Sequence record: OM386654.1
DNA: 64,000 nt
Direction: 5' to 3' (one strand)
Origin: Escherichia phage vB_EcoM_ESCO9
Positions 4,157-18,253 of this stretch are shown piece by piece. Each line of letters opens with the position of its first letter. Position 1 is the stretch's first letter. The notes under the pieces are model-generated. The model did no database searches. It saw only the letters and a list, made by a program, of their open reading frames with translations, and was not told the origin of the DNA. The position numbers and the translations under genes are program-made.

Positions 4157-4175
4157 GATAATGATTATCATTTGC
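4157..4175. promoter_or_regulatory. Fur-box-like site (best match)
   Basis: gataatgattatcatttgc matches Fur consensus at 16 of 19 positions. Confidence 0.5.
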
Positions 4176-4512
4176 ATATTTTCTATACTATAAAACACCC
4201 TAAAAATCAAGATAATTCTAATTTATTGCGCTTTTAAGAAAGTAGGCTCAACAAATGATAGGCTATATGGGGGGCAATAGTATGAAAAACCATCTATTCA
4301 TATATAAATAATTTTGCGCAATAGTGTTAATATTTTTCTTGACAAGAAAGATTTCTTTGTGTTCACATAGCGCCCCCTGGAAGGTGGCGCATTATGATCA
4401 TCAGCATCATTATTCACGATGTTTATTATTGTATAGCTTATTATTTAGCTTATATTATAGCCAATGTTCTAAACATTAGCTAATAATAACGCACCGCAAC
4501 AATGTAAGGGAT

Positions 4513-4556
4513 ACAATATACAATTGTATATTGTTGCGCTTGCAGTTGTTGCAAGC
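4513..4556. repeat. two adjacent perfect palindromes
   Basis: acaatatacaattgtatattgt (22 bp perfect inverted repeat) followed by gcttgca-gttgt-tgcaagc. Confidence 0.6.
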
Positions 4557-4695
4557 TACATAAGCACAAATAATGACTATCGGTGATGGTTATTATGTGG
4601 GGTGTGTAGTTGCGTTATTATTAGCCGCCTATGTGTCCGGCATAGGCTGCTAATGATACGCTTGCGAATTATATTTCTTGTTATAGTTATTGTAT

Positions 4696-5050
4696 GGAAT
4701 GATTACCACATGAAATGGTTACTGTATGCAATGATTACTGTATGAAATGATTATCTAAGTAATAGATAGGAAGGTAAAGATTAGACCATAAATAGATAGG
4801 ATGTGAATTATTTAGTAATGTTACTAACAATTTAATAGTTACTTTGTGCAACAATTCGATAGATTATAATTGTAGTTTTAAGGGTTAGATAGATTATATT
4901 TAGCTTAGTAATGATTTATATTAGTTATTATTGTTTAATACAATGTTATCAATGAGATAGTAACAGTAAGTTATAAATAAAGGTGAGATAATTAGTTTTA
5001 ATTTAGTTAGATAACTTATTATTTTATAGGTTAGATGGTCTTAAGTTAAG
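4696..5050. repeat. AT-rich iteron-like short direct repeats
   Basis: Repeated words aatgattac, tgtatg(a/c)aat, aatagatagg, ggttagat(a/g)g. Confidence 0.45.
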
Positions 5051-5122
5051 AATGATTCTCATTATTGCATTATGCAATTTATTGCATAAATAATCAGCTA
5101 TAAATAAGAATGATTATCATTT
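5051..5122. promoter_or_regulatory. Fur-box-like sites plus palindrome
   Basis: gaatgattctcattattgc and agaatgattatcattt; palindrome ttgcattatgcaa between them. Confidence 0.4.
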
Positions 5123-5320
5123 AAGAGGAAAGACAAGAAAAAGGCTGTTTTTGCCAGGTAATTACATGAAGAAATTAAAAATAAGCGGTCTAAAACACGT
5201 TGTAAGCGCCTTATGATCTTCATGGTATGGTTGTTCATCTGCTCCTTGATTAGCTCGATACCGCGATCTATTCACTTTTTTCGGTGAACGTTTTTGATAG
5301 GTAAAAGCTATCATCTTTAT

Positions 5321-5353
5321 TTAGGTAAAAAGAAAGGGCGCAATAAGCGCCCT
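5321..5353 (-). terminator. intrinsic terminator after gene 5369..5752
   Basis: Stem agggcgc/gcgccct followed by T-run on the minus strand. Confidence 0.55.
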
Positions 5354-5368
5354 TGTTTGAAATGTTAT

Positions 5369-5752
5369 TTACTGATAAGCTGGATCGTTTGTTATATCAA
5401 TCCAATGAGATAAATTAATTTTATTTTTTGCTTTCATTTTCTCGATCAAACGTTCGGCTAATGTTTCTGAACGAATATAAACATGCTCGCTAAAATCTTG
5501 CCCCGTTTCTTCGTCGATCATTTCTCTATATTCAACCTTGCCGATAAACGCATGATTCAGCGCATAAGTTTTACCCGTGTACCAGTTATGTAAATGGATC
5601 TCGCATTTATAATCATCGCTATACCCTTCGGTTGTTCTAACTTCAACCAAGTCACCTTTAAACACTGATAAGCACCACATAGGATCACGATCTACAGCGC
5701 CGTTAAAATCTTTACCGTTTACAGTAGCCGCCAGGTTGATGATATTGCTCAT
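5369..5752 (-). CDS. hypothetical early protein
   Basis: 127 aa ORF; GAGG RBS. Confidence 0.6.
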   Translation of the reverse strand: MSNIINLAATVNGKDFNGAVDRDPMWCLSVFKGDLVEVRTTEGYSDDYKCEIHLHNWYTGKTYALNHAFIGKVEYREMIDEETGQDFSEHVYIRSETLAERLIEKMKAKNKINLSHWIDITNDPAYQ

Positions 5753-5827
5753 GGTGATTCCTCGTTTACCGTTTAAAATGATTTGCCCTACACGATAACT
5801 ATAAGTTAACAGAGGCTATAAAGCAAG

Positions 5828-6058
5828 TTATTTTTCAAAAAATTTTTCTACTGTGATATTCTTCCCAGTGGGATTAGCTACTTTCAAAATTTTATCATGT
5901 ACTGGACGCCCAAAAGAATAAGATCCGTATACAGTAAACCAATAATCACCGTCAGGCTGTACTATCACCGCTGCATAGGGTACGCCTTTTTCGTTATTGC
6001 TGACAGAATAGATCACATTGCCGTTAATAGCTTCAGCGCGTTTAATTTGTTCGATCAT
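5828..6058 (-). CDS. hypothetical early protein
   Basis: 76 aa ORF downstream of promoter-hairpin cassette. Confidence 0.55.
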   Translation of the reverse strand: MIEQIKRAEAINGNVIYSVSNNEKGVPYAAVIVQPDGDYWFTVYGSYSFGRPVHDKILKVANPTGKNITVEKFFEK

Positions 6059-6075
6059 GATATGATTCCTATATT

Positions 6076-6137
6076 GAGCGGGAAACCACTTCCCGCCTTA
6101 CGTGATACATCTTAGTATAAGGGCGATCCGGTGTCAA
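6076..6137 (-). promoter_or_regulatory. early promoter plus leader stem-loop cassette
   Basis: Minus strand: TTGACA, 17 nt, TAAGAT, then hairpin GGCGGGAAGTGGTTTCCCGC. Confidence 0.6.
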
Positions 6138-6481
6138 TAGGTAGGATTGTAAATATTTGATAGTTTATTCCTTTGATGTTTTGTTGTTTGATAGGTATTA
6201 GCTATTAATATATAGCGGGATCTTCCGGTGATTATCTTCCCCTGTCCCCAGGTGCCGCCCGTTCCATAATAATAATCAAAAGCAGGATAAAAGGCAAGAT
6301 AAAAAGCAAATTATTTCCTATGTGCTTTAAACGCTCTAGATAGCTTTATAACAGCTTTTTCATCCTGGTAAGGTGATTAATCATTCCTACCTTGTTTAAG
6401 CGGTTACAGTCGGTTTTAGATGGTTTTACGCCACCTTTACGCCTATTCTTTACGTGTCGCTTCCATTGTGAAAAAGAATAC

Positions 6482-6513
6482 AAAAAAGGGCGCTTAGTGC
6501 GCCCCTTTCTTTT
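6482..6513. terminator. bidirectional terminator-like hairpin
   Basis: aaaaaa-gggcgc-ttagt-gcgccc-ctttctttt. Confidence 0.5.
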
Positions 6514-6521
6514 ACCGTGTA

Positions 6522-6911
6522 TTAATATTCGTTATAATACATCGCTAACTTTTCATCAAAAGCCGATTGACGATCTGCATACTCCCAGAACATTTCCTGA
6601 TCCTGTTGTTCGTCATCATCCATCATATTAAATTGCGCAACCTCCTGGTAAGTGATCGCCATATTATAACGATAGGTGATCTCTTCTGCGATGTTTTCCG
6701 GTAAAGATGATTCTACACTGTCTAACAGCATATTTAACATCATTTCAGCCGCTTTTTCATCATTATCAAAGCAGTAAGCAGACCATGCCGCATGATGTTT
6801 ATTTTTCATCTTTGCAATCAAGCCATTGACTAAAAAAGGCGCTACGTTGTTAACGATACCCTGTAAAGATTGGAATTTTTCAACGTTAGAAACAGAAACC
6901 AGGTTGCGCAT
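6522..6911 (-). CDS. hypothetical early protein
   Basis: Start moved to internal ATG at 6911; track start at 6947 lies inside the leader hairpin. Confidence 0.5.
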   Translation of the reverse strand: MRNLVSVSNVEKFQSLQGIVNNVAPFLVNGLIAKMKNKHHAAWSAYCFDNDEKAAEMMLNMLLDSVESSLPENIAEEITYRYNMAITYQEVAQFNMMDDDEQQDQEMFWEYADRQSAFDEKLAMYYNEY

Positions 6912-6934
6912 AGTATTTACCTTTTTGATTACCT

Positions 6935-6993
6935 GGCGGGAAACCATTTCCCGCCTACGTGGTAAATAATAACATATTGGGGATCGGTGTCAA
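6935..6993 (-). promoter_or_regulatory. early promoter plus leader stem-loop cassette
   Basis: TTGACA, 16 nt, TATTAT, hairpin GGCGGGAAATGGTTTCCCGCC. Confidence 0.6.
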
Positions 6994-6999
6994 TACTTT

Positions 7000-7386
7000 T
7001 TATTCAATATAAATCAAATTATCTTCACCAATGTAAGCATGCACCGATGGCATTAATTTAGCTGCATTTGTTAGGCGGTTGGCGGTGTTAGTAGTGTATA
7101 TTTCAGGGCGATCCCAAAAGCCTACGCCGTGACCGTTACGGGTAAAATGTAAATCATTCCCGATCTGGTTTGCTGTAGCGCCGTCGCTCATTGCCTCAGA
7201 GATAGCAGCATCATTGGCATCACAATAAGCCGCTACGTCATGAATGATCCGCTGATGGGCTTGATCTGAAAAATCATAATCGTCTAAGTTATCAATAAAA
7301 TAGCCTTCATGATCCCTGGCCGATTCAGCAAAAATAAAGGCTTCTTTATAACCGTTGATGATTTCAATAATGATTTCAGTTTTCAT
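7000..7386 (-). CDS. hypothetical early protein
   Basis: 128 aa ORF. Confidence 0.6.
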   Translation of the reverse strand: MKTEIIIEIINGYKEAFIFAESARDHEGYFIDNLDDYDFSDQAHQRIIHDVAAYCDANDAAISEAMSDGATANQIGNDLHFTRNGHGVGFWDRPEIYTTNTANRLTNAAKLMPSVHAYIGEDNLIYIE

Positions 7387-7598
7387 GCTGTACGCTCGAC
7401 AATAATAATGGTTTGCGGTATCTCGTTTTCTACTACTAACAAGGCTTTTTTCTGCGTGATAGATATTTTAACACGTTGTAAAGTAGCGGTAAAATCTTTC
7501 ATTTCATTATGCGCGGATTTAGTGCAATGCCAGATCTCAGGTTTACCTATTTGCAAGCCGCGTAAAAATTCTGTTTTACCTGTCTTATTCGTGATCAT
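7383..7598 (-). CDS. hypothetical early protein
   Basis: ATG at 7598 with AAGGTG RBS; track start at 7616 is TTG. Confidence 0.45.
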   Translation of the reverse strand: MITNKTGKTEFLRGLQIGKPEIWHCTKSAHNEMKDFTATLQRVKISITQKKALLVVENEIPQTIIIVERTA

Positions 7599-7608
7599 TT
7601 GATTCACC

Positions 7609-7713
7609 TTATCCAATACCGTGGGAAGATAGGATCATGTTAGCCATAGTTGCAACCAATCCAACCGATAACGCCAGGCCAACTATTACAACCGTGAAAA
7701 TTTTCTCTAACAT
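7609..7713 (-). CDS. small single-TM peptide (34 aa), approximate
   Basis: MLEKIFTVVIVGLALSVGLVATMANMILSSHGIG; GAGGGTAG RBS. Confidence 0.3.
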   Translation of the reverse strand: MLEKIFTVVIVGLALSVGLVATMANMILSSHGIG

Positions 7714-7794
7714 GATTCTACCCTCATTAATGGGCGTTGCCTTATTGCCCCGCCCTATGTCGTACACTTTACCAGATAACCGCGTATTGTCAAA

Positions 7795-7989
7795 CTATTT
7801 TTTATAAGGGATCAGTAAACTTCTTGCTACCGCTTCACGTAAACCTTCCCTTTTTATCAGGTCTATTGTTGCAGGGTGGCAAGTAAAAGCCTTTGACCAT
7901 TTTTGATCACCTGGTTTACGGGCGAAAATGTAAACTTCTCCGTCGATTTCATCCCAACGAGTATTGCTTGTTAGTTTTTTAAGCGCCAT
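7795..7989 (-). CDS. hypothetical early protein
   Basis: Start moved to ATG at 7989; longer ORF runs into leader hairpin. Confidence 0.5.
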   Translation of the reverse strand: MALKKLTSNTRWDEIDGEVYIFARKPGDQKWSKAFTCHPATIDLIKREGLREAVARSLLIPYKK

Positions 7990-8010
7990 GCTGATTTCTC
8001 TTTTAGTTGT

Positions 8011-8068
8011 GAGCGGCACTATTGCCGCCCTACGAAATACATTCTACCCGATTTATAATTGTTGTCAA
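8011..8068 (-). promoter_or_regulatory. early promoter plus leader stem-loop cassette
   Basis: TTGACA, 16 nt, TAGAAT, hairpin GGGCGGCAATAGTGCCGCTC. Confidence 0.6.
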
Positions 8069-8069
8069 A

Positions 8070-8339
8070 CTATTTTTTCAAGCTCGACCAGTCAAAACAC
8101 GGGGCGATCTCGTTAAAACTTGTACCCTGTAAAGCACATAATTTTTTAGCAATAGCCGCCGTAACCTGGCGTTGTACGCGCGGATCTGCTACTGATTGGA
8201 GAAAATAGGCGGTTTTATATGTGATCATGCTTTCGCCTGTTTCCTTGTTAACGTGGTGCACGGTTTTAGCCTTATCATCTTTTACCAGGGTGTAACCGGA
8301 TTCAATGGCCTTGATTGCAACGTCCAAAGATATTTTCAT
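8070..8339 (-). CDS. hypothetical early protein
   Basis: 89 aa ORF; AAAGAGGTAAATC RBS. Confidence 0.6.
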   Translation of the reverse strand: MKISLDVAIKAIESGYTLVKDDKAKTVHHVNKETGESMITYKTAYFLQSVADPRVQRQVTAAIAKKLCALQGTSFNEIAPCFDWSSLKK

Positions 8340-8358
8340 GATTTACCTCTTTATTGAC

Positions 8359-8379
8359 GGCGGGGAATACTCCCCCGCC
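8359..8379 (-). promoter_or_regulatory. leader stem-loop with no own promoter
   Basis: ggcggggaatactcccccgcc about 19 nt upstream of start codon; upstream gene ends immediately before it. Confidence 0.5.
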
Positions 8380-8386
8380 TTATTAA

Positions 8387-8557
8387 TTACTCTTCATCGT
8401 CGCCGTTATAGTATTCAATGCCGTTTTCATCGGTTACAGTAATGTTAACGCCACCGATAGCAACACGATCACGGGCAAACGTCATGGCTTCATTTAAATC
8501 TTCAGACCAAAAAATATTGTGACCTTTGCGCGATACATAAAACATAGTTGGGATCAT
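8387..8557 (-). CDS. small hypothetical protein (56 aa), approximate
   Basis: ORF below track cutoff; AGAAGAGAAA RBS; sits downstream of cassette 8579..8640. Confidence 0.35.
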   Translation of the reverse strand: MIPTMFYVSRKGHNIFWSEDLNEAMTFARDRVAIGGVNITVTDENGIEYYNGDDEE

Positions 8558-8578
8558 GATTTGTTTCTCTTCTGTTGT

Positions 8579-8640
8579 GAGCGGGAAACCATTTCCCGCC
8601 CTATGTGATAAACTTTACTACGTTGTTTGCCTAGTGTCAA
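8579..8640 (-). promoter_or_regulatory. early promoter plus leader stem-loop cassette
   Basis: TTGACA, 17 nt, TAAAGT, hairpin GGGCGGGAAATGGTTTCCCGCTC. Confidence 0.6.
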
Positions 8641-8641
8641 A

Positions 8642-8926
8642 TTATTTTTTAATGTTTTGCCCTACAAAATTGATCACTTCCTTAAGCTGTTTCTCAGTCA
8701 TGATCGTGCCTGGTAATTCTTCTTTGATTTCTTCCGGTAGATAGATATTACCGCGCCAGGTTAATAAACAACCGTTTTGATCTTCGCAGATAGAATAAGA
8801 GAAGATCCACTCATTATCATTCTCAAGCTCCCAAAAGCACAAAAAATCTTCTTTCCCTAAATTTTCAACGGTTAAACATAATCCGCGACGTGCTGCATAG
8901 TTGGAAAGTGCTTTTGTGATCTTCAT
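8642..8926 (-). CDS. hypothetical early protein
   Basis: 94 aa ORF. Confidence 0.6.
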   Translation of the reverse strand: MKITKALSNYAARRGLCLTVENLGKEDFLCFWELENDNEWIFSYSICEDQNGCLLTWRGNIYLPEEIKEELPGTIMTEKQLKEVINFVGQNIKK

Positions 8927-8945
8927 AGCTTATCTCTTCTGTTAA

Positions 8946-9008
8946 GGCGGGGAAACCATTTCCCCGCTCTATGAGATACAATATACTATCTGTTAGGTGT
9001 GCTGTCAA
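8946..9008 (-). promoter_or_regulatory. early promoter plus leader stem-loop cassette
   Basis: TTGACA, 17 nt, TATATT, hairpin GCGGGGAAATGGTTTCCCCGCC. Confidence 0.6.
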
Positions 9009-9332
9009 TCAATAATCTTTAAGATTTTCTACATTTACAAAAGTGCGTTTATTTTCTAAGTTTTCGCCGTACCATTGCCCCATGTTGATTTCTGCGGTGC
9101 GCAACCAGGACATGCCGCGTTGTATCTTTTTACTTGCAATCTCGATCCGGCTTTTGCATAGTGCTTTCGCTTGCAATGTAAAAACACTATTGCCCTGTAA
9201 TGCTTCCAGGTCATCATGTGCAAGGCGATACTCTTTAAAGCCTGATTCTATCATTTCAATAGCATCAAGTAAACGCGCGCGATGATAGAAAAAATCAGAG
9301 TTATCCAAATAAACACCGATCACAGATTTCAT
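9009..9332 (-). CDS. hypothetical early protein
   Basis: Start moved to ATG at 9332 (MKSVIGVY...) with AAAAGGGTAAAATT RBS. Confidence 0.5.
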   Translation of the reverse strand: MKSVIGVYLDNSDFFYHRARLLDAIEMIESGFKEYRLAHDDLEALQGNSVFTLQAKALCKSRIEIASKKIQRGMSWLRTAEINMGQWYGENLENKRTFVNVENLKDY

Positions 9333-9432
9333 AATTTTACCCTTTTGTTTGCGGCCTTTGCCGTTTTCAAGATATAGTTTAAAGCATAACAAAAAATTGT
9401 CAAGCCTTTAAAGCGTACAACTATAAAACCTA

Positions 9433-9552
9433 TTAAAACACAATGTATAACAACATGGCTATAGTAGCAATACAACATAAAGCCATGCTTGTTTTCCTTC
9501 CTTCCTCGTATGCTGGATTTATTACGCTATATTGTACGGGAATAATTTTCAT
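9433..9552 (-). CDS. small hydrophobic peptide (39 aa), approximate
   Basis: MKIIPVQYSVINPAYEEGRKTSMALCCIATIAMLLYIVF; AAGGAAACAGC RBS. Confidence 0.3.
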   Translation of the reverse strand: MKIIPVQYSVINPAYEEGRKTSMALCCIATIAMLLYIVF

Positions 9553-9561
9553 GCTGTTTCC

Positions 9562-9657
9562 TTAATGTCTTAAAACGTGGTTTACAATAGAAACAAGCAT
9601 ACAGAAGAAAAAAGATCCTGTCAATAAGATACCGAAAAATAAATGTAAATAGGGCAT
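9562..9657 (-). CDS. small hydrophobic peptide (31 aa), approximate
   Basis: MPYLHLFFGILLTGSFFFCMLVSIVNHVLRH; AAGGAG RBS. Confidence 0.3.
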   Translation of the reverse strand: MPYLHLFFGILLTGSFFFCMLVSIVNHVLRH

Positions 9658-9661
9658 GGTT

Positions 9662-9964
9662 TTACTCCTTAAAAAAATCATTGACAATTAAACTGATAAC
9701 GCCCAGCACCAGATCACCAGGTAGTGCCGCGCTTTCGTTGTTGCTTGTTTGCACTTCCTCACTAGTACCAGCACGATAGATTGCATGGTAAGCAATAGTA
9801 TAATAACCTTTCGTTATTTCTTTAAGATTAATGATTAGCACGTTATTTGTTTCATCTTGAAACAATTTAGCGGTGATAGTATTGTTTTCTTTTACACTAT
9901 CGACTTTTATTGATGGATCATTTACACCAGAAAAAAGAAAAAACGTTTTAGCTATGCCGTTCAT
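9662..9964 (-). CDS. hypothetical early protein
   Basis: 100 aa ORF; AAGGAG RBS. Confidence 0.55.
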   Translation of the reverse strand: MNGIAKTFFLFSGVNDPSIKVDSVKENNTITAKLFQDETNNVLIINLKEITKGYYTIAYHAIYRAGTSEEVQTSNNESAALPGDLVLGVISLIVNDFFKE

Positions 9965-10011
9965 GTAGTTCTCCTTTGTTGTGTGTATCTTATAACGTGC
10001 TTTCTATGTTG

Positions 10012-10413
10012 TCAATCTTTTATCTCGGTGCATTTTGCTAGGGTATACGTTGCAAGTGCTGACACTAGTTTTTCATTGCTACGATCTGCGGCTGTACTGT
10101 GTACTTTTTGAATACTTTTTAACCACGGCGTAAAATTTTGAGTAGTCAGCACACTGGTAATAATTTCACATGGCACATCTTCATTTAAGCCGTTAACAAT
10201 AGATTTATCTATTTTTGCCGTTAGTTGTGTAACAGCACCATAAGCGATCATGTGTGAATCCTCCATGATTTCATCGGGGATCGCATTATTAATAAGCATG
10301 ACGTTTTCCATTGCATCAACGGCGCTTAATTCTGCTACTGTGGAGGATATCGCCGCGCTAGATGTTCCAACCATGCCAAAAGAGATTAAACCAGCGATCA
10401 ATAATTTTTTCAT
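10012..10413 (-). CDS. secreted protein with N-terminal signal peptide
   Basis: MKKLLIAGLISFGMVGTSSAA signal-peptide-like N-terminus; GAGG RBS. Confidence 0.55.
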   Translation of the reverse strand: MKKLLIAGLISFGMVGTSSAAISSTVAELSAVDAMENVMLINNAIPDEIMEDSHMIAYGAVTQLTAKIDKSIVNGLNEDVPCEIITSVLTTQNFTPWLKSIQKVHSTAADRSNEKLVSALATYTLAKCTEIKD

Positions 10414-10421
10414 TTCTTGCC

Positions 10422-10604
10422 TCATATATGTTTTATTGAGATTATATTGTCACTATATACAACGTTTTTCAACGTGTCAATAAAAATCTTATTGCCTTCA
10501 ATCCCCAGGATCACGCCGCTAGTTATGAAGCCATATTGATCACGATATCGGGCGCATAACCTTTGCCCCTGGGCTAGTGCCTTGCTTATTTCGTCTAATT
10601 TCAT
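10422..10604 (-). CDS. hypothetical early protein
   Basis: 60 aa ORF; AGGAG RBS. Confidence 0.5.
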   Translation of the reverse strand: MKLDEISKALAQGQRLCARYRDQYGFITSGVILGIEGNKIFIDTLKNVVYSDNIISIKHI

Positions 10605-10696
10605 TTTTAAAGCTCCTGTAAAGCCGTCTAACGTTGATTTATAGGCTTATCCTGGCGTTACCATTGCCTATGGGTAACAAGCCTCTATATAAGCTA

Positions 10697-10724
10697 AAAG
10701 GGCGCTTATTGCGCCCTTTTTTGT
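10697..10724. terminator. bidirectional terminator-like hairpin
   Basis: aaagggcgc-ttatt-gcgccc-ttttttg. Confidence 0.5.
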
Positions 10725-10876
10725 TATTCGTTCCAGTATCTTTTTGTGCTGCGATCTCTCTTTGTTTTGTTCCGCTTGTCGCCTTTTTTGGTGATCTCTT
10801 CGTTCCAATCTTTACGCGCCTTGCTGCGGTTGAATTTTTCGATCTGCTGTGATGCGTTCATGTTTCTTCCTCTTAA

Positions 10877-11236
10877 TTACGCCACGTTATGCTGTTTTGC
10901 CAGGATTACGATCATGCTTGCAATATATAACCAATAATTTTCCCGCTCACGGGTAACGGTTGTTTCTTTGCTTGTTTCTTTTATGTACTTCCATTCAATT
11001 AATAAATGATCAATCTCGTTATAATCAAAGGCGATGTTAATGTCTGACGGTAAACCTTGTAACCATGAGGCTATCGCCTTGATCACGTTATAATTGTAAC
11101 GTTTTTGATTATCGGGATACCAGTATTCAGAGTTAAAACGGCGCATCAGTTCGGTGATCTTTTCTTTTTCGGTTGTAGTACCATCAAAAGAAATAGCCGA
11201 CACAATGTAAGTTTTAATTGCTTTTACTGATTTCAT
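10877..11236 (-). CDS. hypothetical early protein
   Basis: 119 aa ORF downstream of cassette. Confidence 0.6.
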   Translation of the reverse strand: MKSVKAIKTYIVSAISFDGTTTEKEKITELMRRFNSEYWYPDNQKRYNYNVIKAIASWLQGLPSDINIAFDYNEIDHLLIEWKYIKETSKETTVTRERENYWLYIASMIVILAKQHNVA

Positions 11237-11256
11237 GATCTTATCTCTTTATTGAT

Positions 11257-11315
11257 GGCGGGAAACCATTTCCCGCCGTTGTTGTTACTTTACTTATAAA
11301 TGATGCTACTGTCAA
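11257..11315 (-). promoter_or_regulatory. early promoter plus leader stem-loop cassette
   Basis: TTGACA, 17 nt, TAAAGT, hairpin GGCGGGAAATGGTTTCCCGCC. Confidence 0.6.
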
Positions 11316-11322
11316 GCGGATT

Positions 11323-11493
11323 TTATTTATTTTTTAGCGTTAACGTTCCCAGCTTATCAGCGTGACGCAGACCAGGGAAGATCCATTTACCTGATTCATC
11401 TTTTACCGGGGCTTTAAGCGTAGCGCCCAGGTTGGCGGCGTTAACTTTACGTGCAACGTTGCGAGCGGCTTCACGGGTAGCGAAAGTGATCAT
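11323..11493 (-). CDS. hypothetical early protein (56 aa)
   Basis: Start moved to ATG at 11493 with AAGAGGAAA RBS. Confidence 0.45.
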   Translation of the reverse strand: MITFATREAARNVARKVNAANLGATLKAPVKDESGKWIFPGLRHADKLGTLTLKNK

Positions 11494-11516
11494 GATGTTT
11501 CCTCTTCTCTTTGTTA

Positions 11517-11577
11517 GGCGGTGGGCTATTCCACCGCCTTGATGAATACAGTTTACTTTATTTTTGCAGTATTGCAA
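11517..11577 (-). promoter_or_regulatory. leader stem-loop with variant -35
   Basis: Hairpin ggcggtgggctattccaccgcc (compensatory stem changes); TTGCAA in place of TTGACA. Confidence 0.45.
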
Positions 11578-11583
11578 GCGGTT

Positions 11584-11799
11584 TTATGAAATAAATGTCA
11601 AAGTAAAATCATAATCTTTTGACAGTTTATATTGCACCTTGTTACCGTATATGTCACCTTTACGTAAAGATCCACGGATACCGATAACATCCTTCACGTC
11701 TTTTAAATTTTTCACGCCTGTAATGTCTTTGTTGAAATACTCGTCATCTGAAAATAAAACTTGACTTGCATTTTTTAACAGTGTGCGGATATTAGCCAT
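11584..11799 (-). CDS. hypothetical early protein (71 aa)
   Basis: Start moved to ATG at 11799. Confidence 0.45.
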   Translation of the reverse strand: MANIRTLLKNASQVLFSDDEYFNKDITGVKNLKDVKDVIGIRGSLRKGDIYGNKVQYKLSKDYDFTLTFIS

Positions 11800-11820
11800 C
11801 TTGATAATCTCTCTCACTAG

Positions 11821-11878
11821 GAGCGGCACTATTGCCGCCCTATGCATTACATTTTACTGATTTTAGTTATCTTGTCAA
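11821..11878 (-). promoter_or_regulatory. early promoter plus leader stem-loop cassette
   Basis: TTGACA, 16 nt, TAAAAT, hairpin GGGCGGCAATAGTGCCGCTC. Confidence 0.6.
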
Positions 11879-11886
11879 TATTATTT

Positions 11887-12114
11887 TTAGTTTAATTGAT
11901 CCAGGCACAACAAGCGATCAACATTTAGATCGGTTAGGCTAATCGTTGGCACCTGGTAGGATTCGATGTACTCAACGCTCGACCATTGCCCAAAGTTAGC
12001 GACCGCCCAGCTATTCAAGGAGGAGTGAAGATCATCCCCTTTCTTCTCTGTGATAACTGCTACTACCTGGGAGCTTCCAACCGTACCGGATACGCGAACA
12101 ATAACGATAGCCAT
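11887..12114 (-). CDS. hypothetical early protein
   Basis: 75 aa ORF; AAAGAAAGG RBS. Confidence 0.5.
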   Translation of the reverse strand: MAIVIVRVSGTVGSSQVVAVITEKKGDDLHSSLNSWAVANFGQWSSVEYIESYQVPTISLTDLNVDRLLCLDQLN

Positions 12115-12136
12115 AATGATAACCTTTCTTTGATTT

Positions 12137-12196
12137 GGCGGGAAACCATTTCCCGCCCTATGTGATAAACTATACCAGAATTTTAAACAGTGTCAA
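12137..12196 (-). promoter_or_regulatory. early promoter plus leader stem-loop cassette
   Basis: TTGACA, 16 nt, TATAGT, hairpin GGGCGGGAAATGGTTTCCCGCC. Confidence 0.6.
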
Positions 12197-12291
12197 ATTA
12201 TTTTCTATTTCTTCCGTAATAGCCTAACTTATGATCTAAGCTAAAACGTTTTGTGAGATAGGTCGAACGATGTTTCATTTTTATACCTCCT

Positions 12292-12531
12292 TTACATTCC
12301 AACCATAGCGGCACGGATCGCGGTTTTACTGAACTTGAATCCGTCTGGCGTTTTATCTTGATCCATACTTTCAAGAAATAACATCATATCCCGCGCTGCG
12401 TCATTCTTATTGGTGTTAGCTGCGATAAATTCACGCGCAAGATTATAAAAACCTTCATCGTTGTTGATCCAAAGGCTTACATTCCAATGAGTTTTGTTTT
12501 TGTGACCTAAGAACATTTTAGATTTAGCCAT
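12292..12531 (-). CDS. hypothetical early protein
   Basis: 79 aa ORF; AAAGAGATTAACATC RBS. Confidence 0.55.
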   Translation of the reverse strand: MAKSKMFLGHKNKTHWNVSLWINNDEGFYNLAREFIAANTNKNDAARDMMLFLESMDQDKTPDGFKFSKTAIRAAMVGM

Positions 12532-12555
12532 GATGTTAATCTCTTTTTCAGTGAG

Positions 12556-12614
12556 GCGGGAACTATTCCCGCTCTCGATATAAGTATTATATGCTTTTTA
12601 TTCGTGCTGTCAAT
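12556..12614 (-). promoter_or_regulatory. early promoter plus leader stem-loop cassette
   Basis: TTGACA, 16 nt, TATAAT (perfect -10), hairpin gcgggaa-cta-ttcccgc. Confidence 0.65.
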
Positions 12615-12619
12615 GCTTT

Positions 12620-12985
12620 TTATAAATCTTTTTTACGTTTAACATCGCTTGCATGACTGTATACAGCGATCCCATTATCACGGCAAAAACGGGAAAGGTA
12701 TGCATAATTTGAAAACTCTTTACCTTCCATATTAATAACCTTGCTAAATTCTTCCAGGGCGACGGTATCAAAATGATCCCCATAACCATATTGAAACGGA
12801 ACGTTAACGACTTCAATCAGTTTACCGCCGATCTCAACGTCAACCATCAAAGAGAAATAAGTATTACCATAAGACTTTTGAAACCAGCGACGGGCGCTAA
12901 TATGTACCGCTTCAATGCTGGATAGTTCAATTTTAGCAGTGTTAGCCAGGGTAGCATAAGCAGAAACATTGATATTTTTAGCCAT
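12620..12985 (-). CDS. hypothetical early protein
   Basis: 121 aa ORF; AAAAGAGATTAAAG RBS. Confidence 0.6.
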   Translation of the reverse strand: MAKNINVSAYATLANTAKIELSSIEAVHISARRWFQKSYGNTYFSLMVDVEIGGKLIEVVNVPFQYGYGDHFDTVALEEFSKVINMEGKEFSNYAYLSRFCRDNGIAVYSHASDVKRKKDL

Positions 12986-13080
12986 AGTCTTTAATCTCTT
13001 TTGATTAGTTAGGAGTATTCCCGATAAAAGTTATTATGCTTGTACTATCGTTCGTTGTCAATAGCACAAGACTAAAACTT

Positions 13081-13260
13081 TTAACGATAATCATCATATG
13101 CTTTATTGACCTGGCGAATATAGCATTCAAAAGCTAGATCAATAGATTTATATTCACGGATATAATCACCATAGGAAACCACATACATTTCTATAGCTTC
13201 CTCATATGCCAGGATGATAGAATCTAAACCTACGATCTCAGTCTTTGCAATAATAGCCAT
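13081..13260 (-). CDS. small hypothetical protein (59 aa), approximate
   Basis: ORF below track cutoff; AAGGA RBS. Confidence 0.3.
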   Translation of the reverse strand: MAIIAKTEIVGLDSIILAYEEAIEMYVVSYGDYIREYKSIDLAFECYIRQVNKAYDDYR

Positions 13261-13408
13261 GCTTTTATTCCTTAGTCATGTTTCAATCTATATAAGCATT
13301 ATAGCTTACTGATTTCAGGTGTCAAGTGATTTTTTTTATTTCACCTTATGGGGCGTTGCCCCGCTTTATGTGGTACATATTACGGGGCTTGTTCGCATAT
13401 GTCAAGCC

Positions 13409-13963
13409 TTACACAAGACAATTTTCATAATTTTTTAGGGCTTGTCTTTTTTCCTCTTCCGTCGGCATGTATGGCTGGATCTCTTCCTCTTCCAGGGTAG
13501 GCATGATTTCTTCCTCTTCCTCCTGGTCGTCCTGGTCTTCCTCTTGCGCTACTGCAACAAGTTTATTGATCTTCTCCTGGGCTTTAATCAATTTTGCATC
13601 TAGCACCATTTTAGCGGTGTTGTATACCGTCCATGCCATGCGTTTTTCTTCGTATGCTTTATCTAGTGCGGCTAATTTAGCGGGATATTCTTCTAACACC
13701 TTAAAAGCCGGATCAATGCTGTATAAGGGATTATTTTTAGCGTCATCGCTTGGATCTGCGGCGCTTGCAATGTCAGCGTTACCATTTGCCAGCCAACCAG
13801 GGCGAACAGATCGCGCCTTTGTGTTGCCGTTGCTCTTTGCCGCTCGATTTCCTATCTGCTCCCCGCTATACCCTACCATGTGATCGATCATGTCATCTGG
13901 TATTATGCGCGGATCATTAGCGTCATGCTTTACCCAGGACTGGATCACATACTCACGCCCCAT
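13409..13963 (-). CDS. hypothetical early protein with strongly acidic C-terminal region
   Basis: 184 aa ORF; EEDQDDQEEEEE tract. Confidence 0.6.
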   Translation of the reverse strand: MGREYVIQSWVKHDANDPRIIPDDMIDHMVGYSGEQIGNRAAKSNGNTKARSVRPGWLANGNADIASAADPSDDAKNNPLYSIDPAFKVLEEYPAKLAALDKAYEEKRMAWTVYNTAKMVLDAKLIKAQEKINKLVAVAQEEDQDDQEEEEEIMPTLEEEEIQPYMPTEEEKRQALKNYENCLV

Positions 13964-13964
13964 G

Positions 13965-14225
13965 CTAATTTGCCTCTTCTGTTAGTAGTTTACATACCTT
14001 AAACATGCTTGCCGCGTCTTTTGACGGTAGCCAGCCTATGCGATACACTCCCGGATCTGGATTAGTTATATCAGTCAGTTGCGCGTTGCGATGATTAAAA
14101 ATAGTGTAACCGCCGCCAGCACGGGGATAAACATTATCTTTAAACCTGATAGCGTATCTCGCCAGGTTGAACGTTGCAGCATGTTCAAAAGCGATCACAT
14201 TATCAAAAACTTTTAGAAAAAACAA
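13965..14225 (-). CDS. hypothetical early protein
   Basis: 86 aa ORF. Confidence 0.55.
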   Translation of the reverse strand: MFFLKVFDNVIAFEHAATFNLARYAIRFKDNVYPRAGGGYTIFNHRNAQLTDITNPDPGVYRIGWLPSKDAASMFKVCKLLTEEAN

Positions 14226-14227
14226 GA

Positions 14228-14374
14228 TTATCCTCCCCAGCGTTTAAAGCCCGTTGCACGGTTGTTTTTTAGCTCTCGTTTTAGTCTCTTGCAACGGTTT
14301 ACAAGTGCAAACCGTGCCGGAGTCGTAACAGTAGCGCCGTTTTTGGTGTGAATACTCATTACATATTGTTTCAT
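14228..14374 (-). CDS. small basic protein (48 aa), approximate
   Basis: ORF below track cutoff; K/R-rich; AGGA RBS. Confidence 0.3.
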   Translation of the reverse strand: MKQYVMSIHTKNGATVTTPARFALVNRCKRLKRELKNNRATGFKRWGG

Positions 14375-14393
14375 AAAGTTTTATCCTATGTAA

Positions 14394-14446
14394 GCGGGAA
14401 CTATTCCCGCTTTAAGATAGCTTATCAGGTTTTAGTGCAATGTCAA
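14394..14446 (-). promoter_or_regulatory. early promoter plus leader stem-loop cassette
   Basis: TTGACA, 16 nt, TAAGCT, hairpin GCGGGAATAGTTCCCGC. Confidence 0.55.
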
Positions 14447-14452
14447 CCGTTT

Positions 14453-14815
14453 TTATTCGTAAATTTTACCGCTTTCTACCCATACCATAACACGGCGCAT
14501 GTTATCCCATGCATCTTGTCGCAGATTTAAGGCATGCAATTCTTCGGTTGTGCTCATACCTGGTACGGGCTTGCTATATGTTACAAAGAGATCGCCAGCA
14601 TATTCATAAGCCAGGGTAAGATCACATTGAATCATCTTTTTAAGCATAGCATTAAGCATCATATTAGCGGCATGTTGATCACGTTTTAGCGGTAGCGTTG
14701 CGATCTGTGAGCGATAGCTTTCGATCCGTGCATCCACTGCATCACGTGGAAGATTTTTCACGTCGTCGCGGAAAGATACCAGGTTTAACATGATAGTATT
14801 GATTTGCTTGCTCAT
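14453..14815 (-). CDS. hypothetical early protein
   Basis: 120 aa ORF. Confidence 0.6.
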   Translation of the reverse strand: MSKQINTIMLNLVSFRDDVKNLPRDAVDARIESYRSQIATLPLKRDQHAANMMLNAMLKKMIQCDLTLAYEYAGDLFVTYSKPVPGMSTTEELHALNLRQDAWDNMRRVMVWVESGKIYE

Positions 14816-14840
14816 TGTGTTACCCTTTCTTTGATGGCCT

Positions 14841-14901
14841 GGCGGGAAACCATTTCCCCGCCTTATGTGGTATATATTACCAAATTATTTTTCAGTGTCA
14901 A
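14841..14901 (-). promoter_or_regulatory. early promoter plus leader stem-loop cassette
   Basis: TTGACA, 16 nt, TAATAT, hairpin GGCGGGGAAATGGTTTCCCGCC. Confidence 0.6.
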
Positions 14902-14904
14902 GCC

Positions 14905-15177
14905 TTAAAGCAAAAACGCTACATCTTGCGCTTTTAGTGTAGTATCAACCATTTTCGGGCTTTTATAATCAACAAAGCGCGCGGTTTTTTCAATAACGAA
15001 GCCGAGATAATCTTGTTTATTGAAATTACATTCTTTTTTAAATGTTTCCCGTGCCACGGTGATCGCTGCATCCAGGGATAAACGCCCATCAATATTGATG
15101 TTAGCGAAAGATCCGCCACCGCGCATAGGTTTACCAGTGATGCCCATTACGATCATTGATGCGCTATATGATGCCAT
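14905..15177 (-). CDS. hypothetical early protein
   Basis: 90 aa ORF. Confidence 0.55.
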   Translation of the reverse strand: MASYSASMIVMGITGKPMRGGGSFANINIDGRLSLDAAITVARETFKKECNFNKQDYLGFVIEKTARFVDYKSPKMVDTTLKAQDVAFLL

Positions 15178-15199: not shown

Positions 15200-15257
15200 G
15201 AGCGGCACTATTGCCGCCCTATGTGATACATCTTATCAGATTAAAAAACGTTGTCAA
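15200..15257 (-). promoter_or_regulatory. early promoter plus leader stem-loop cassette
   Basis: TTGACA, 16 nt, TAAGAT, hairpin GGGCGGCAATAGTGCCGCT. Confidence 0.6.
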
Positions 15258-15632
15258 GAATATTTTTAAAAAATAATAACCGCAACTACAATCCAAAATG
15301 GAACGGCAAGAATGATAGCGTTAATCGTTCCAACCGTCAAGCTGTTTTCTTTCTTGATCATCGTTATCAACCTTTTATAAGTAATGTTATTGTGACGGTG
15401 GATTATGGAGATCCTCACCTTTGCCCGTCCTACATTGCGCCCTCCTTTTGTTTATTGTCGTTGTGCCTCGCCCCCTCGACAAGATGAATAATACGCTACC
15501 AGGTGAGGAACGTCAACCCCTTTTTTAATCTTTTTTTCATTTCTTTTTTTTTTTGCTTGCTATCTATAAAGGAAAGGGCTATTATCTTTCTACCGCGCCA
15601 ACCAGGGCGCACATCAAAGAAAGGGCGATACC

Positions 15633-15899
15633 ATGACAAATACTACTCTACACCTCATGCACTCATTAGGCTGGCAAGGCGGCACGGTGCACCAGGTAGC
15701 AAGCGCAACGGGCTTAAAGGTTGAAACCGTTCTCAACCTGGGCGATCATAAGGTGGAAGAAATAGATCATTTTGATCCGTTCGCCAATGGTTATCTATGG
15801 GCTTGCAGTGGCGGCGGGGAAAGCAAGATACCACCAGGGGCGCGGGGCGATATGTATTTTTGGTTAGGTGTCCTATCCTGGCAAGAAAACAAAAAGTAA
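15633..15899 (+). CDS. hypothetical protein (uncertain)
   Basis: 88 aa plus-strand ORF in a locally GC-rich patch; weak AAAGGG RBS. Confidence 0.3.
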   Translation: MTNTTLHLMHSLGWQGGTVHQVASATGLKVETVLNLGDHKVEEIDHFDPFANGYLWACSGGGESKIPPGARGDMYFWLGVLSWQENKK

Positions 15900-15901
15900 T
15901 A

Positions 15902-15930
15902 TTGACAAGCCCAGGGATCGGGCTTATACT
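15902..15930 (+). promoter_or_regulatory. near-consensus sigma70-type promoter with no obvious downstream ORF
   Basis: TTGACA, 17 nt, TATACT. Confidence 0.5.
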
Positions 15931-16160
15931 GTTTTACATACAGAAGAGGAAACGCCACCCCCACGGCGTAAAGGCGGGGCTAACATACCAGGGGGCACTG
16001 GTTGGAAGGTTGATCGCCGGTAGCTCGTCTAAAATAAATTTGTAAAGAAATGTAAAGATAAAAATAATCGCTTGCTTTTGTTGTTGGTTATGCTATTCTT
16101 ATTGTATGGCGAGGGGACACGGGAGCGCGAGACAAACACCGCCCCTGCGCGTTATTCTCT

Positions 16161-16275
16161 AAATGAGAAAATTCTCATTTGCTAATGATTCTCATTCTCT
16201 TACTGAGAATGATTATCACTTACATAGTTAAATGATAATGATTCTCATTTACAAACGAAAATGATTCTCATTAAC
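16161..16275. promoter_or_regulatory. cluster of about five Fur-box-like sites
   Basis: aaatgagaaaattctcattt palindrome, gagaatgattatcacttac, aaatgataatgattctcattt, aaaatgattctcattaac. Confidence 0.5.
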
Positions 16276-16289
16276 ACACCTATAAAAAC

Positions 16290-16500
16290 ACGAAATTGAA
16301 CTTTTCATTTTTGATTTTTCTACGGAAAAAGGCAAAAAAACTTTAAATAAACTGGGGAATTTTTAAAAAATTGAAGTTTTCATTTTCAAAATCTGGATAG
16401 AAATACATACAAAAACTTTAAATAATTTTGACCAAACTTGAACTTTTCATTTTCAAAATTTGTACCCAAAAATCTGTAAAAACTTTAAATAATTTTGTAC
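16290..16500. repeat. three tandem ~67 bp direct repeats
   Basis: Each unit has TTGAAcTTTTCATTTTcaaaat ... aaaaactttaaataatttt. Confidence 0.6.
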
Positions 16501-16711
16501 TTTTTATAAAAATGATTTTACTGTTCTGTTATAAGTAGTAGTTAAGAGATAGTATGTCTTTTAAAGATCAGATACCATAGTCAAACAAACAAATTAAATA
16601 CTTTATTAACAGAGTACAGAATAATATTTACTCTGGATATATTATTCAGAGGGTGGATTTCCGTACATGAAACCCACACCCCTTTTTATAAAAATAAAAA
16701 TTTTCAAAATA

Positions 16712-17263
16712 TCAGGAAATATCAGATTGTGCTTTTAGATAAACAGCAAGGTCTGTATGCCATTTTCCTAAAAGATTTTGTCCTTTCCAACAGTCCTTAT
16801 TTTCCACGTCACGATCCCACATTCCCATTTTGATACCATAAATAGAATCATAAGGGCTTGCCTCTACGAACTCCTTATCTGCGTAAGCGATAAGTTTATT
16901 TTTGAGATCTTCATTTTGTGTGTATTTAAGATACAAACCACGCTTGACAATCTTCTCCCGTAAAGAAGTCCAAGTAGCTTCATCGTAATCTTTAACTAAT
17001 CTACCTAGTCGCTTATAATATGCTTGTTCTTTTTCTCCTGTATATCTTAGATCTCCGGTTAAAATAGAAGATGCAATACTGTAATCATAAAACAAACATG
17101 CTTTTCTCCACATCATATATTGTTCCACACAAGTAAATTCAACAGAACTTGTAATAGAATTATTATACTTGGGTGCTAAAGGTTCAATAAAAGATGATAG
17201 ATACCAGTTGCTAAATTCATCTTTTGCTGAAAAGAAGAACACATACTTATCAGTAATCCGCAT
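16712..17263 (-). CDS. NADAR-domain protein (YbiA-like)
   Basis: FFFSAKDEFSNWYLSSF ... EQYMMWRKACLF ... EASPYDSIYGIKMG ... KGQNLLGKWHTDL resemble E. coli YbiA motifs. Confidence 0.75.
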   Translation of the reverse strand: MRITDKYVFFFSAKDEFSNWYLSSFIEPLAPKYNNSITSSVEFTCVEQYMMWRKACLFYDYSIASSILTGDLRYTGEKEQAYYKRLGRLVKDYDEATWTSLREKIVKRGLYLKYTQNEDLKNKLIAYADKEFVEASPYDSIYGIKMGMWDRDVENKDCWKGQNLLGKWHTDLAVYLKAQSDIS

Positions 17264-18253
17264 TTACACCTCCTTATTGTATACTAACTTGCCACCATAT
17301 TGTGTAATAATTTTTTGAAGATTTTCCAAATCAGAAACACTTACTGTTTCTGTATGACCGTCTTTCAACTCTCTTGCTGTTAAAATACCAGTTTTTAATT
17401 TTTTCTTTATAGCTCTTTCAGCAGCCTTACACTGTTTCACTGTGCTAAAATCATATAAACAAATACGTTCCATAAAAAACAGATTACGGCTATTTTGAAT
17501 GTTTAATCGCCTATCACTATCTTTAGCTATACCAAACTTAAGAGCAACTATAATATTATCATCCTTAACAATATTAATATATAACTGCTGCTGACTATGA
17601 CCAGCACACATAGGACAACCTCGACCGAGGCTTAATAAATTATGAGCACTCCCTATCTGCTCACCATGCACAAGACAAAGATATTTAAACTTACCTATAG
17701 AAGAGGGTTTGGTAATCCAATCTACCCAGACATACCCTTTCCCTTCTACTTCCTTTTTTACCCTATAGGTGATCTGGTCTTCTGTATACCGATAGTTCCC
17801 ACAACGACACGGAATATACCCTCGTTTAAGGTTATCTCCTTCAGAGTAAAATTTACCATCACAAACACCTGCTTGAACATATTCATCATGAGAGCAAACA
17901 GGACATTCAACCATCCAGATAATATTCCTACATCCTTTACCCCGTGTTCCTGTGTTAGTGAAGATAGTGCCTTCCTTAAATTCCCCTGTAGAAAAGAAAT
18001 CTGCAATATGTTGATCGTCGGACATTGTTTGTGACTTCCTTATATTCTTCCTCCTACATTGTGGACAACCGCTACCACATTTAAAACTGTTAATACTTGT
18101 AGTATCCCATTTATAACCACAATGGCACAACAAATCAAGTTTTGTGTGGACCCCTTTCCATTGTCCCGTCCATCCTAAGATTTGGATTTGCTTACTCTCT
18201 GCTATTGGTATACACTCTTCTTTATATTGTTCCCATGATTTTGGTGCTGCCAT
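17264..18253 (-). CDS. Cys-rich zinc-ribbon protein with T5orf172/GIY-YIG-like C-terminal region
   Basis: Four CxxC-type pairs; C-terminal LYINIV...KFGIAKDSDRRL; stop abuts NADAR start. Confidence 0.45.
   Translation of the reverse strand: MAAPKSWEQYKEECIPIAESKQIQILGWTGQWKGVHTKLDLLCHCGYKWDTTSINSFKCGSGCPQCRRKNIRKSQTMSDDQHIADFFSTGEFKEGTIFTNTGTRGKGCRNIIWMVECPVCSHDEYVQAGVCDGKFYSEGDNLKRGYIPCRCGNYRYTEDQITYRVKKEVEGKGYVWVDWITKPSSIGKFKYLCLVHGEQIGSAHNLLSLGRGCPMCAGHSQQQLYINIVKDDNIIVALKFGIAKDSDRRLNIQNSRNLFFMERICLYDFSTVKQCKAAERAIKKKLKTGILTARELKDGHTETVSVSDLENLQKIITQYGGKLVYNKEV

Follow-up and report, generated by a model that had tools for sequence, protein, structure and literature searches.

Five tandem palindromes resembling Fur boxes lie in noncoding DNA at 16160-16274 of the 64,000-nucleotide stretch of Escherichia phage vB_EcoM_ESCO9 (OM386654.1) analyzed here, which we call the window. 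Which protein do they bind, and what do they do in a phage? The original prediction had placed such repeats on both sides of a GC-richer early gene block (5369-15177), and had proposed either that one DNA-binding protein coordinates the two flanks, or that the repeats are remnant boundaries of an acquired module. The window comes from a Justusliebigvirus (phi92-like) of the subfamily Stephanstirmvirinae, which are virulent myoviruses of ~147 kb. Over 15200-17200 the window shares 99% identity with Escherichia phages vB-Eco-KMB37 and inny, and 96% with phi92. In GenBank the site arrays are unannotated, or marked merely as 'repeat_region' (alia, inny).

A palindromic site confined to two clusters

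The repeat unit is a 23-bp palindrome, tAAATGAGAATnATTCTCATTta, whose core is a 7-1-7 inverted repeat (TGAGAAT-N-ATTCTCA) with AAA/TTT flanks. The information profile of the sites is symmetric and totals 26.6 bits. Scores below refer to a position weight matrix (PWM) that was derived from phage sites only, 21 in number, and mismatches are to the 19-bp Fur consensus unless another pattern is named. The sites in the window are:

3957-3979, left-cluster site, TCAATGAGAATTATTATCATTTG; 27.5 bits; counterpart in phage tuntematon (L013) at 2948
4152-4174, left-cluster site, TAGCTGATAATGATTATCATTTG; 2 mismatches, the nearest to the Fur consensus in the window; tuntematon counterpart at L013 3127
5043-5065, left-cluster site, AAGTTAAGAATGATTCTCATTAT; 16.3 bits
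5101-5123, left-cluster site, TAAATAAGAATGATTATCATTTA; 33.7 bits; tuntematon counterpart at L013 3939
16160-16181, site S1, TAAATGAGAAAATTCTCATTTG; a palindrome 1 bp short of 7-1-7, directly after the RNA2 hairpin (see below) and TTATTCTC
16176-16198, site S2, CATTTGCTAATGATTCTCATTCT; 19.8 bits; 3 mismatches
16200-16222, site S3, TTACTGAGAATGATTATCACTTA; 23.7 bits; perfect 7-1-7 core, 0 mismatches to TGAKAAT-N-ATTMTCA
16229-16251, site S4, TAAATGATAATGATTCTCATTTA; 36.8 bits, the best score in the window; 3 mismatches
16252-16274, site S5, CAAACGAAAATGATTCTCATTAA; 24.4 bits; 3 mismatches

All five tandem sites of the right-hand array are present as predicted, including the palindrome at S1, whose counterpart in close relatives is a full 23-mer, TAAATGAGAAAAATTCTCATTTG (26-27 bits). 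The occurrence of the same motif family on both flanks of the block of small minus-strand genes is also real. On the left, the predicted range of 4157-5122 contains genuine sites but missed the one at 3957; the four left-hand sites are dispersed across 1.2 kb, 11 kb from the right array.

There are six exact copies of the core AATGATTMTCATT in 64 kb, all of them within the two clusters (4160, 5051, 5109, 16184, 16237 and 16260). With up to two mismatches it has 30 matches, compared with 9.3 +/- 3.0 in shuffled sequences, and none of 100 shuffles reached 30, so the sites are more alike than AT-rich DNA would yield by chance. The Fur consensus GATAATGATAATCATTATC with up to three mismatches has 5 matches, at 4157, 16181, 16234 and 16257 (2-3 mismatches each), for an expectation of 0.05 per 64 kb; the sites at 3962, 5048 and 16205 have 4 mismatches. 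The pattern TGAKAAT-N-ATTMTCA is matched with 0-1 mismatch at 3961, 4156, 5047, 5105, 16180, 16204 and 16233. When the window was scanned with the PWM, eight sites (S2-S5, 3957, 4152, 5043 and 5101) scored 16-37 bits and the next position 10 bits, and in the complete genome of inny (147,483 bp) scores above 17 bits were found at the same two clusters only. The shuffles and the PWM scans together show that the sites are not an artefact of composition. We also rejected a host origin of the cluster, because BLASTN detected no significant match in 5,426 E. coli genomes.

The sites have the sequence of Fur operators

The PWM, although built from phage sites only, retrieves Fur operators of the host. 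In 45 kb of the E. coli K-12 genome containing the enterobactin genes, its top five hits were in the fepB-entC, fepA-fes and fepD-entS intergenic regions, which together make up ~730 bp and hold the three divergent promoter regions of that gene cluster under Fur control. In a second K-12 stretch of 49 kb, the best hit was on the ryhB promoter (ACAATAATAATCATTCTCATTCG, 21.9 bits) and the second, at 7.3 bits, in the feoA promoter. These two promoters are Fur-regulated as well. The phage core AATGAGAATCATT is identical to the core of the aerobactin iucA operator, and we know of no other E. coli regulator motif that fits TGAGAAT-N-ATTCTCA. The label Fur-box-like is thus borne out by the shuffles, by the consensus matches and by the retrieval of K-12 operators. 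Judged by their sequence, these are Fur operators, nearer to the palindromic ideal than most host sites.

Like the Fur boxes of E. coli (ryhB, fepA-fes, fepB-entC, iucA and fhuA), the phage sites have the 6-1-6 / 7-1-7 core and an extra AT-rich hexamer, and they differ from the 19-bp consensus at 2-4 positions. Clustering is typical of Fur sites (PMC2189734), and the phage sites are likewise clustered. However, E. coli Fur boxes are overlapping sites shifted by 6 bp, whereas those of the phage are separate full palindromes spaced 23-29 bp apart, and they favor GAGAAT over the canonical GATAAT. They also differ in that they occur in a virulent phage, do not lie over recognizable -35/-10 elements, and are only predicted to bind Fur. 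We considered that the phage might encode its own Fur, and rejected this because TBLASTN found no Fur homolog in phages of the window's group; the binder would then be host Fur. We infer that host Fur very probably occupies the phage sites, because they are at least as consensus-like as chromosomal operators known to be Fur-bound.

Our literature search found no report of Fur boxes in Vequintavirinae or Stephanstirmvirinae; the phage-borne Fur boxes it did find all belong to cargo operons carried by temperate phages (e.g. sitABCD, PMC6969025). The paper describing a Keio collection screen with phage LL12 does not mention fur or iron.

The right array lies within a noncoding module

We found no credible open reading frame in 15900-16711, a noncoding region bounded by the 3' ends of a plus-strand gene (15633-15899) and of a minus-strand gene for a NADAR-domain protein (16712-17263). 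From left to right on the plus strand, the control region contains:

15633-15899, plus strand: small gene (88 aa), the sole plus-strand gene of the control region
15902-15930, plus strand: P1, a strong sigma70-type promoter close to the consensus, TTGACA-17-TATACT (matching it at 11 of 12 promoter positions)
~15937-16030, plus strand: RNA1, a conserved structured element of ~95 nt after P1
16041-16058: direct repeat TGTAAAGA-aa-TGTAAAGA, one helical turn apart, just upstream of P2
16072-16099, plus strand: P2, a promoter-like site, TTGCTT-16-TATTCT, recognized by consensus match only and facing the Fur-like array
16109-16150 (with surroundings 16106-16158), plus strand: RNA2, a hairpin predicted by folding, GCGAGGGG...GAGACAAACACCG...CCCCTGCGC, then TTATTCTC
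16160-16274: the five Fur-like sites, S1-S5
16293-16513, plus strand: three iteron-like direct repeats of ~70 bp, in 76% A+T DNA
16648-16691: closing hairpin, -11.8 kcal/mol on the plus strand and -20.1 kcal/mol on the minus strand (z = -4.2)

The array begins ~55 nt downstream of the putative P2 start, so that its sites are at about +55 to +170, an unusual position for Fur repression that counts against a role for Fur. No convincing sigma70-like promoter overlaps the array (16160-16274) on either strand. We rejected an extended -10 on the minus strand beside S5 (TGTGTTAAT), which is not conserved in phage alia, and the TATAAA at 16282, which has no usable -35. In three relatives (KB57, SPLA5a and W70) a TTGACA-type promoter follows 13-25 bp after the site or sites.

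This geometry bears on the idea of coordinated control. The minus-strand promoter-like sites that face the small-gene block are at 15230-15516, 650-900 bp from the right array, with no strong Fur-like site; one plus-strand gene and two conserved noncoding elements lie in between. The array is ~1 kb from the edge of the block and inside another conserved module, which is separate and plus-strand-oriented (P2, hairpin, Fur sites, iterons). Because the array is far from the block promoters and no sigma70-type promoter clearly overlaps it, simple joint repression of the block is unsupported, although action of one DNA-binding protein at both clusters is plausible given that the two-cluster arrangement recurs in tuntematon and KB57. 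The description of the block as GC-richer holds weakly (39.6%, compared with 37.8% for the window); it is the noncoding flanks, both 32% GC, that stand out, and 16276-16711 has only 23.9% GC.

P1 and RNA1 neighbor the module containing the Fur-like sites but are separable from it. In contigs of 115-139 kb from another type of phage, RNA1 is present by itself and has a terminator of its own. Besides the window, P1/RNA1 loci are L003-L008, L021, L030, L052, L059, L065, L069, L082 and L083. Distant phages of Klebsiella, Cronobacter, Pectobacterium and Salmonella have RNA1 with 82-88% identity. A pseudoknot-type pairing between its hairpin loop and a downstream tetranucleotide covaries (CCCC/GGGG, CCAG/CTGG, CCAA/TTGG and CCAT/ATGG), and RNAalifold gives two additional covarying pairs. 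RNA1 has no Rfam match and is a candidate for a new family of phage noncoding RNA. Rfam searches of the whole window (gathering threshold) and of 15850-16750 (E-value up to 10) returned only meaningless miRNA and PrrF matches on palindromes, and a tRNA scan of the window found none.

The direct repeat at 16041-16058, which is kept as TTTGTAAAGAnnTGTAAAGA in all the relatives we examined, is a possible activator or UP-like site. P2 varies, with CTTGAT or CTTGCA followed by TATTAT or TATATT in relatives. RNA2, with its core GAGACAAACACCG, aligns in 8 phages with many invariant columns. RNA2 is not coding, because a frame-shifting indel separates phages, and its closing helix shows an A:U to G:C change in CR8.

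The 70-bp repeats (TTGAACTTTTCATTTTCAAAAT...AAAAACTTTAAATAATTT) have motifs that occur only here in the window and in the whole inny genome, so we rejected them as a general (late) phage promoter. Vequintavirinae have three to five repeats of unrelated sequence at this position (GAAAAAATACGATTTCGATTTTGAAAAACCGATCGAGAACCC; in W70, GAAAAACCTCTCAAGTTCT). The repeat region is a possible replication origin. Between 15178 and 16720 we found no exact DnaA box (TTWTNCACA) and 4 matches with one mismatch. The single IHF consensus match (15365) is well upstream of the array, and GC skew tracks gene orientation without marking an origin. The closing hairpin is followed by a T-run on the plus strand, and its stem is stronger on the minus strand.

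Among nearby genes, that for an AAA+ ATPase, annotated as 'replicative helicase' in phage KP2025, is 2 kb from the array. The 88-aa protein has an HTH-like segment, GGTVHQVASATGLKVETVLNL; its Stephanstirmvirinae homologs are 95-100% identical and those in unrelated metagenomic phages 40-50%. Pfam gave no match for it, and its neighbors have no DNA-binding assignment. Beyond the NADAR-domain gene on the minus strand is a gene for a protein with CapR homology and a T5orf172 domain (17264-18253). This gene varies between close relatives (a 390-aa gene in inny and a 465-aa gene in alia at the same position), and looks like a mobile, homing-endonuclease-like insertion.

The left noncoding region

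The left cluster lies in 1.8 kb of noncoding DNA (3553-5368, 32% GC) that contains several repeat families besides the Fur-like sites. The left edge of the site at 5043-5065 overlaps the first hexamer of a weak minus-strand promoter-like match (5049-5021). Other repeats in the region are ATGATTAC(T/C)GTATG, with 3-4 copies at a 16-bp period (4683-4762), and CCCGATTT..GACACACCCCCT, with three copies (3737-3950); TAGATAG-type repeats occur as well, as do several long palindromes (4479-4625, 4503-4544). At 4341-4400, TTGACA-N17/18-TCACAT precedes a hairpin, GCGCCCCCTGGAAGGTGGCGC, and a stretch that weakly resembles a Fur box, GCATTATGATCATCAGCATCATTATT. Similar units, 'TTGACA ... tgcTCAAAAT', lie ahead of Fur-like sites in the left region of KB57 (L014 22465-22525 and 23045-23120). 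Such units may represent promoters of an unusual class. The GenBank entries of several related phages start or end inside the left region (window ~3908 and ~4249), which may hold the genome termini or reflect a reference start convention.

The sites are conserved across two subfamilies

Many relatives share the layout of the right module at the syntenic position. They include Phapecoctavirus (tuntematon, ESCO5), Klebsiella phage KP2025, and the Vequintavirinae phages SPLA5a (Salmonella), CR8 (Cronobacter), KB57 (Klebsiella) and coliphage W70. The layout spans Stephanstirmvirinae and Vequintavirinae phages of Escherichia, Klebsiella, Salmonella, Cronobacter and Pectobacterium. In an alignment of 8 phages the first site always begins 8-9 nt after the RNA2 hairpin, and 11 of its positions are invariant. 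The right array has one copy in SPLA5a and W70, two in KB57, three or four in CR8, phiTE, KP2025 and the Phapecoctaviruses, and five in the window, most often with a center-to-center spacing of 29 bp. By scanning IMG/VR with RNA1 as the anchor we found ~25 loci with the module; most of them, ~18 of the 25, carry an array of 1-5 sites whose first site is at a fixed 143-154 nt from the anchor. Arrays are also present in genomes of 49-52% GC, which rules out AT-richness as their cause.

The flanking DNA is otherwise unalignable between genera. On the left, tuntematon has three sites at equivalent positions in a 1.6-kb noncoding region that barely aligns elsewhere, and the Mydovirus KB57 has five sites. 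The two-cluster arrangement of the window thus recurs in the distant relatives tuntematon and KB57. W70 keeps the first right-hand site and has no left-cluster sites. The sites are under selection, being kept across two subfamilies while the surrounding DNA diverges. That pattern, and the distance of ~1 kb from the array to the block edge, leaves the idea that the repeats are remnant boundaries of an acquired module unsupported.

An uncultured sister lineage, represented by the IMG/VR contigs L059, L065 and L083 (e.g. IMGVR_UViG_3300031418_000008, 141 kb), keeps P1, RNA1, P2, RNA2 and the iterons, and its AAA+ ATPase shares 50-52% identity with the Stephanstirmvirinae one. At the array position it has unrelated repeats instead, other palindromes among them (GTTACTCACCGTGACTAAC, AATGATAACGTGCGGTATCATT and three copies of ACTATCAC), which identifies this position as a specificity cassette; the swapped repeats could serve a different host factor or a phage-encoded protein.

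The position of the 88-aa gene is occupied by unrelated genes in KB57, SPLA5a and KP2025 (14-20% identity) and by none in CR8. L019 and L022 do have homologs of the gene but lack an array, and in L020 the gene is inverted relative to the module. We rejected the 88-aa protein as the binder of the array because it has no Pfam match and does not co-occur with the array.

According to a 2025 preprint, an intergenic region of ~2 kb in the Vequintavirinae phage Bas54 tolerates no transposon insertions (10.1101/2025.11.20.689424). In general terms, this fits the presence of essential noncoding elements in this phage group. W70 is not a close relative of Bas54.

Five GenBank records among the matches listed are named as Campylobacter phages, and there are single Acinetobacter and Pseudomonas phage records too. 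Campylobacter phages A110a and A145 (among records that include MG065689.1 and MG065645.1) are ~92-98% identical to the coliphage of the window; Acinetobacter phage ABPW7 and Pseudomonas phage PsgM04F have ~89-91% identity across roughly one-third of the noncoding query. Mislabelling or contamination of the assemblies is the probable reason.

Which protein do the sites serve?

The sites exist, are confined to two clusters, are equivalent in sequence to Fur operators, and are conserved in position and phase. On balance we favor, with some reserve, the explanation that they are operators for host Fur, arrayed so as to gate or shape a noncoding module that resembles an origin. The sites would be high-affinity Fur-type operators, occupied by iron-loaded Fur dimers of the host in the infected enterobacterial cell. 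The module would consist of a sigma70-type P2, a short hairpin, one to five phased Fur sites, locus-specific AT-rich iterons and a hairpin end, and Fur bound just past the first hairpin would control whether transcription or DNA opening enters the iteron region. Fur might act as a roadblock or co-terminator for P2 transcripts. In Vequintavirinae it might instead be an upstream regulator of the third, TTGACA-type promoter, as a repressor or an H-NS antagonist; Fur is known to act as an H-NS antagonist at ftnA. Alternatively, Fur could have an architectural or anti-H-NS role at the origin-like element. Any of these would tie the origin-like or regulatory function of the module to host iron status, and the dispersed left-hand sites would respond to the same protein. 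Both the direction of the Fur effect and the origin function of the module are speculative. The fixed place of the sites after a promoter and hairpin and before AT-rich iterons, and their conserved phasing, argue for a cis-acting role rather than mere titration.

The palindromes could instead be operators or origin iterons of a phage-encoded dimeric protein, such as an initiator or an early repressor, with the likeness to Fur boxes incidental or serving competition. This we regard as rather unlikely, though it accounts for several features. Tandem palindromes with a regular period of 23-29 bp, downstream of promoters and beside 76% AT DNA with iterons, are what such a protein might use: the tandem sites (16160-16274) do adjoin an AT-rich region with three 70-bp repeats, and the AAA+ ATPase gene is only 2 kb away. 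The consistent use of GAGAAT rather than GATAAT points in the same direction and away from Fur. So does the sister lineage: its module is otherwise conserved but has other repeats at this position, as co-evolution with a phage-encoded protein would be expected to produce. It also counts against Fur that repression by its iron-loaded form in iron-replete cells has no obvious benefit for a lytic phage. However, no cognate initiator gene is linked to the array, no candidate protein co-occurs with it, and the adjacent gene at 15633-15899 is non-homologous or absent in other array-bearing phages; that no phage protein partner stands out counts for host Fur. The motif is constant across two subfamilies and in genomes with a GC content of 38-52%, whereas operators specific to a phage normally change along with the protein that binds them. 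Four further sites spread over 1.2 kb on the left are unlike a single origin. The retrieval of genuine host operators by the phage PWM also argues against a dedicated phage protein, and implies that Fur would bind the sites whether or not such a protein exists.

Even if Fur is the binder, the clusters might be mainly a sponge, by which replicated phage genomes titrate Fur. Iron uptake by the host would then be derepressed, along with RyhB, Suf and NrdHIEF, and the iron-dependent ribonucleotide reductases of the phage would profit. The annotation of inny does include class Ia and class III ribonucleotide reductases. A cell contains a few thousand Fur molecules, and a Fur box on a multicopy plasmid is enough to titrate Fur in the FURTA assay; a phage with nine sites per genome and hundreds of genome copies could do likewise. 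The phage sites score 20-37 bits on the PWM and host operators 7-22, a comparison that favors the phage sites by construction. Against this, titration needs neither the invariant placement by the hairpin nor the 29-bp phasing, and little Fur would be titrated by those relatives that have one site only (SPLA5a, W70). We therefore consider titration improbable as the main function of the clusters, and plausible as an additional or alternative effect. There is hardly any chance that the sites are fortuitous matches in AT-rich, repeat-rich DNA or decayed remnants at the edges of an acquired block. Both regions are 32% GC and full of other repeats, but the shuffle controls exclude chance, and the persistence of the sites at fixed positions in 50% GC genomes and across subfamilies effectively refutes this explanation.

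Relation to known systems

Host Fur boxes occur on the DNA of temperate lambdoid phages, at sitABCD (PMC6969025). The Fur-regulated cargo genes of temperate phages (sitABCD, stx1) have a single box on a bacterial-type cargo promoter and are expressed from the prophage; in contrast, the sites described here form arrays, which lie in control or origin-like noncoding DNA of strictly lytic myoviruses and have no gene related to iron in their vicinity.

The closest structural parallels are with replication origins. The lambda origin (four O-protein iterons) and iteron plasmids share with the phage module four to five tandem palindromic sites with a period of ~2-3 helical turns and an AT-rich neighbor, and here the upstream promoters could supply transcriptional activation. 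Unlike the lambda origin, the module has no adjoining initiator gene, its motif is that of a host regulator, there is a second, dispersed cluster 11 kb away, and its origin activity is putative. T4 oriF and oriG and the T7 primary origin resemble it in having promoters (here tandem P1 and P2) that face an AT-rich stretch, which is repeat-rich here, but we know of no array of host-regulator sites between promoter and unwinding element in those origins.

Implications

The module may be a replication origin or a hub of regulation, in phages for which both origins and early regulation are uncharacterized. The putative operators would place a host regulator in an unprecedented setting, two subfamilies of strictly lytic, broad-host-range phages, and suggest that the phage may read or manipulate the iron status of its host. 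Phages bearing the array are candidates for therapy. If Fur binds, the outcome of infection could depend on iron, which is low in gut, urine and serum; alternatively, derepression of siderophore receptors could alter susceptibility to other phages, colicins and siderophore-conjugated antibiotics. A bolder proposal, which we think possible but doubtful, is that Stephanstirmvirinae and Vequintavirinae have recruited Fur into an essential noncoding control or origin module, either to make replication or early transcription iron-gated or to let the replicating genome strip Fur from the host chromosome and so release iron uptake. If true, this would be a case of cis-encoded, protein-free sensing or reprogramming of host metal physiology by a lytic phage.
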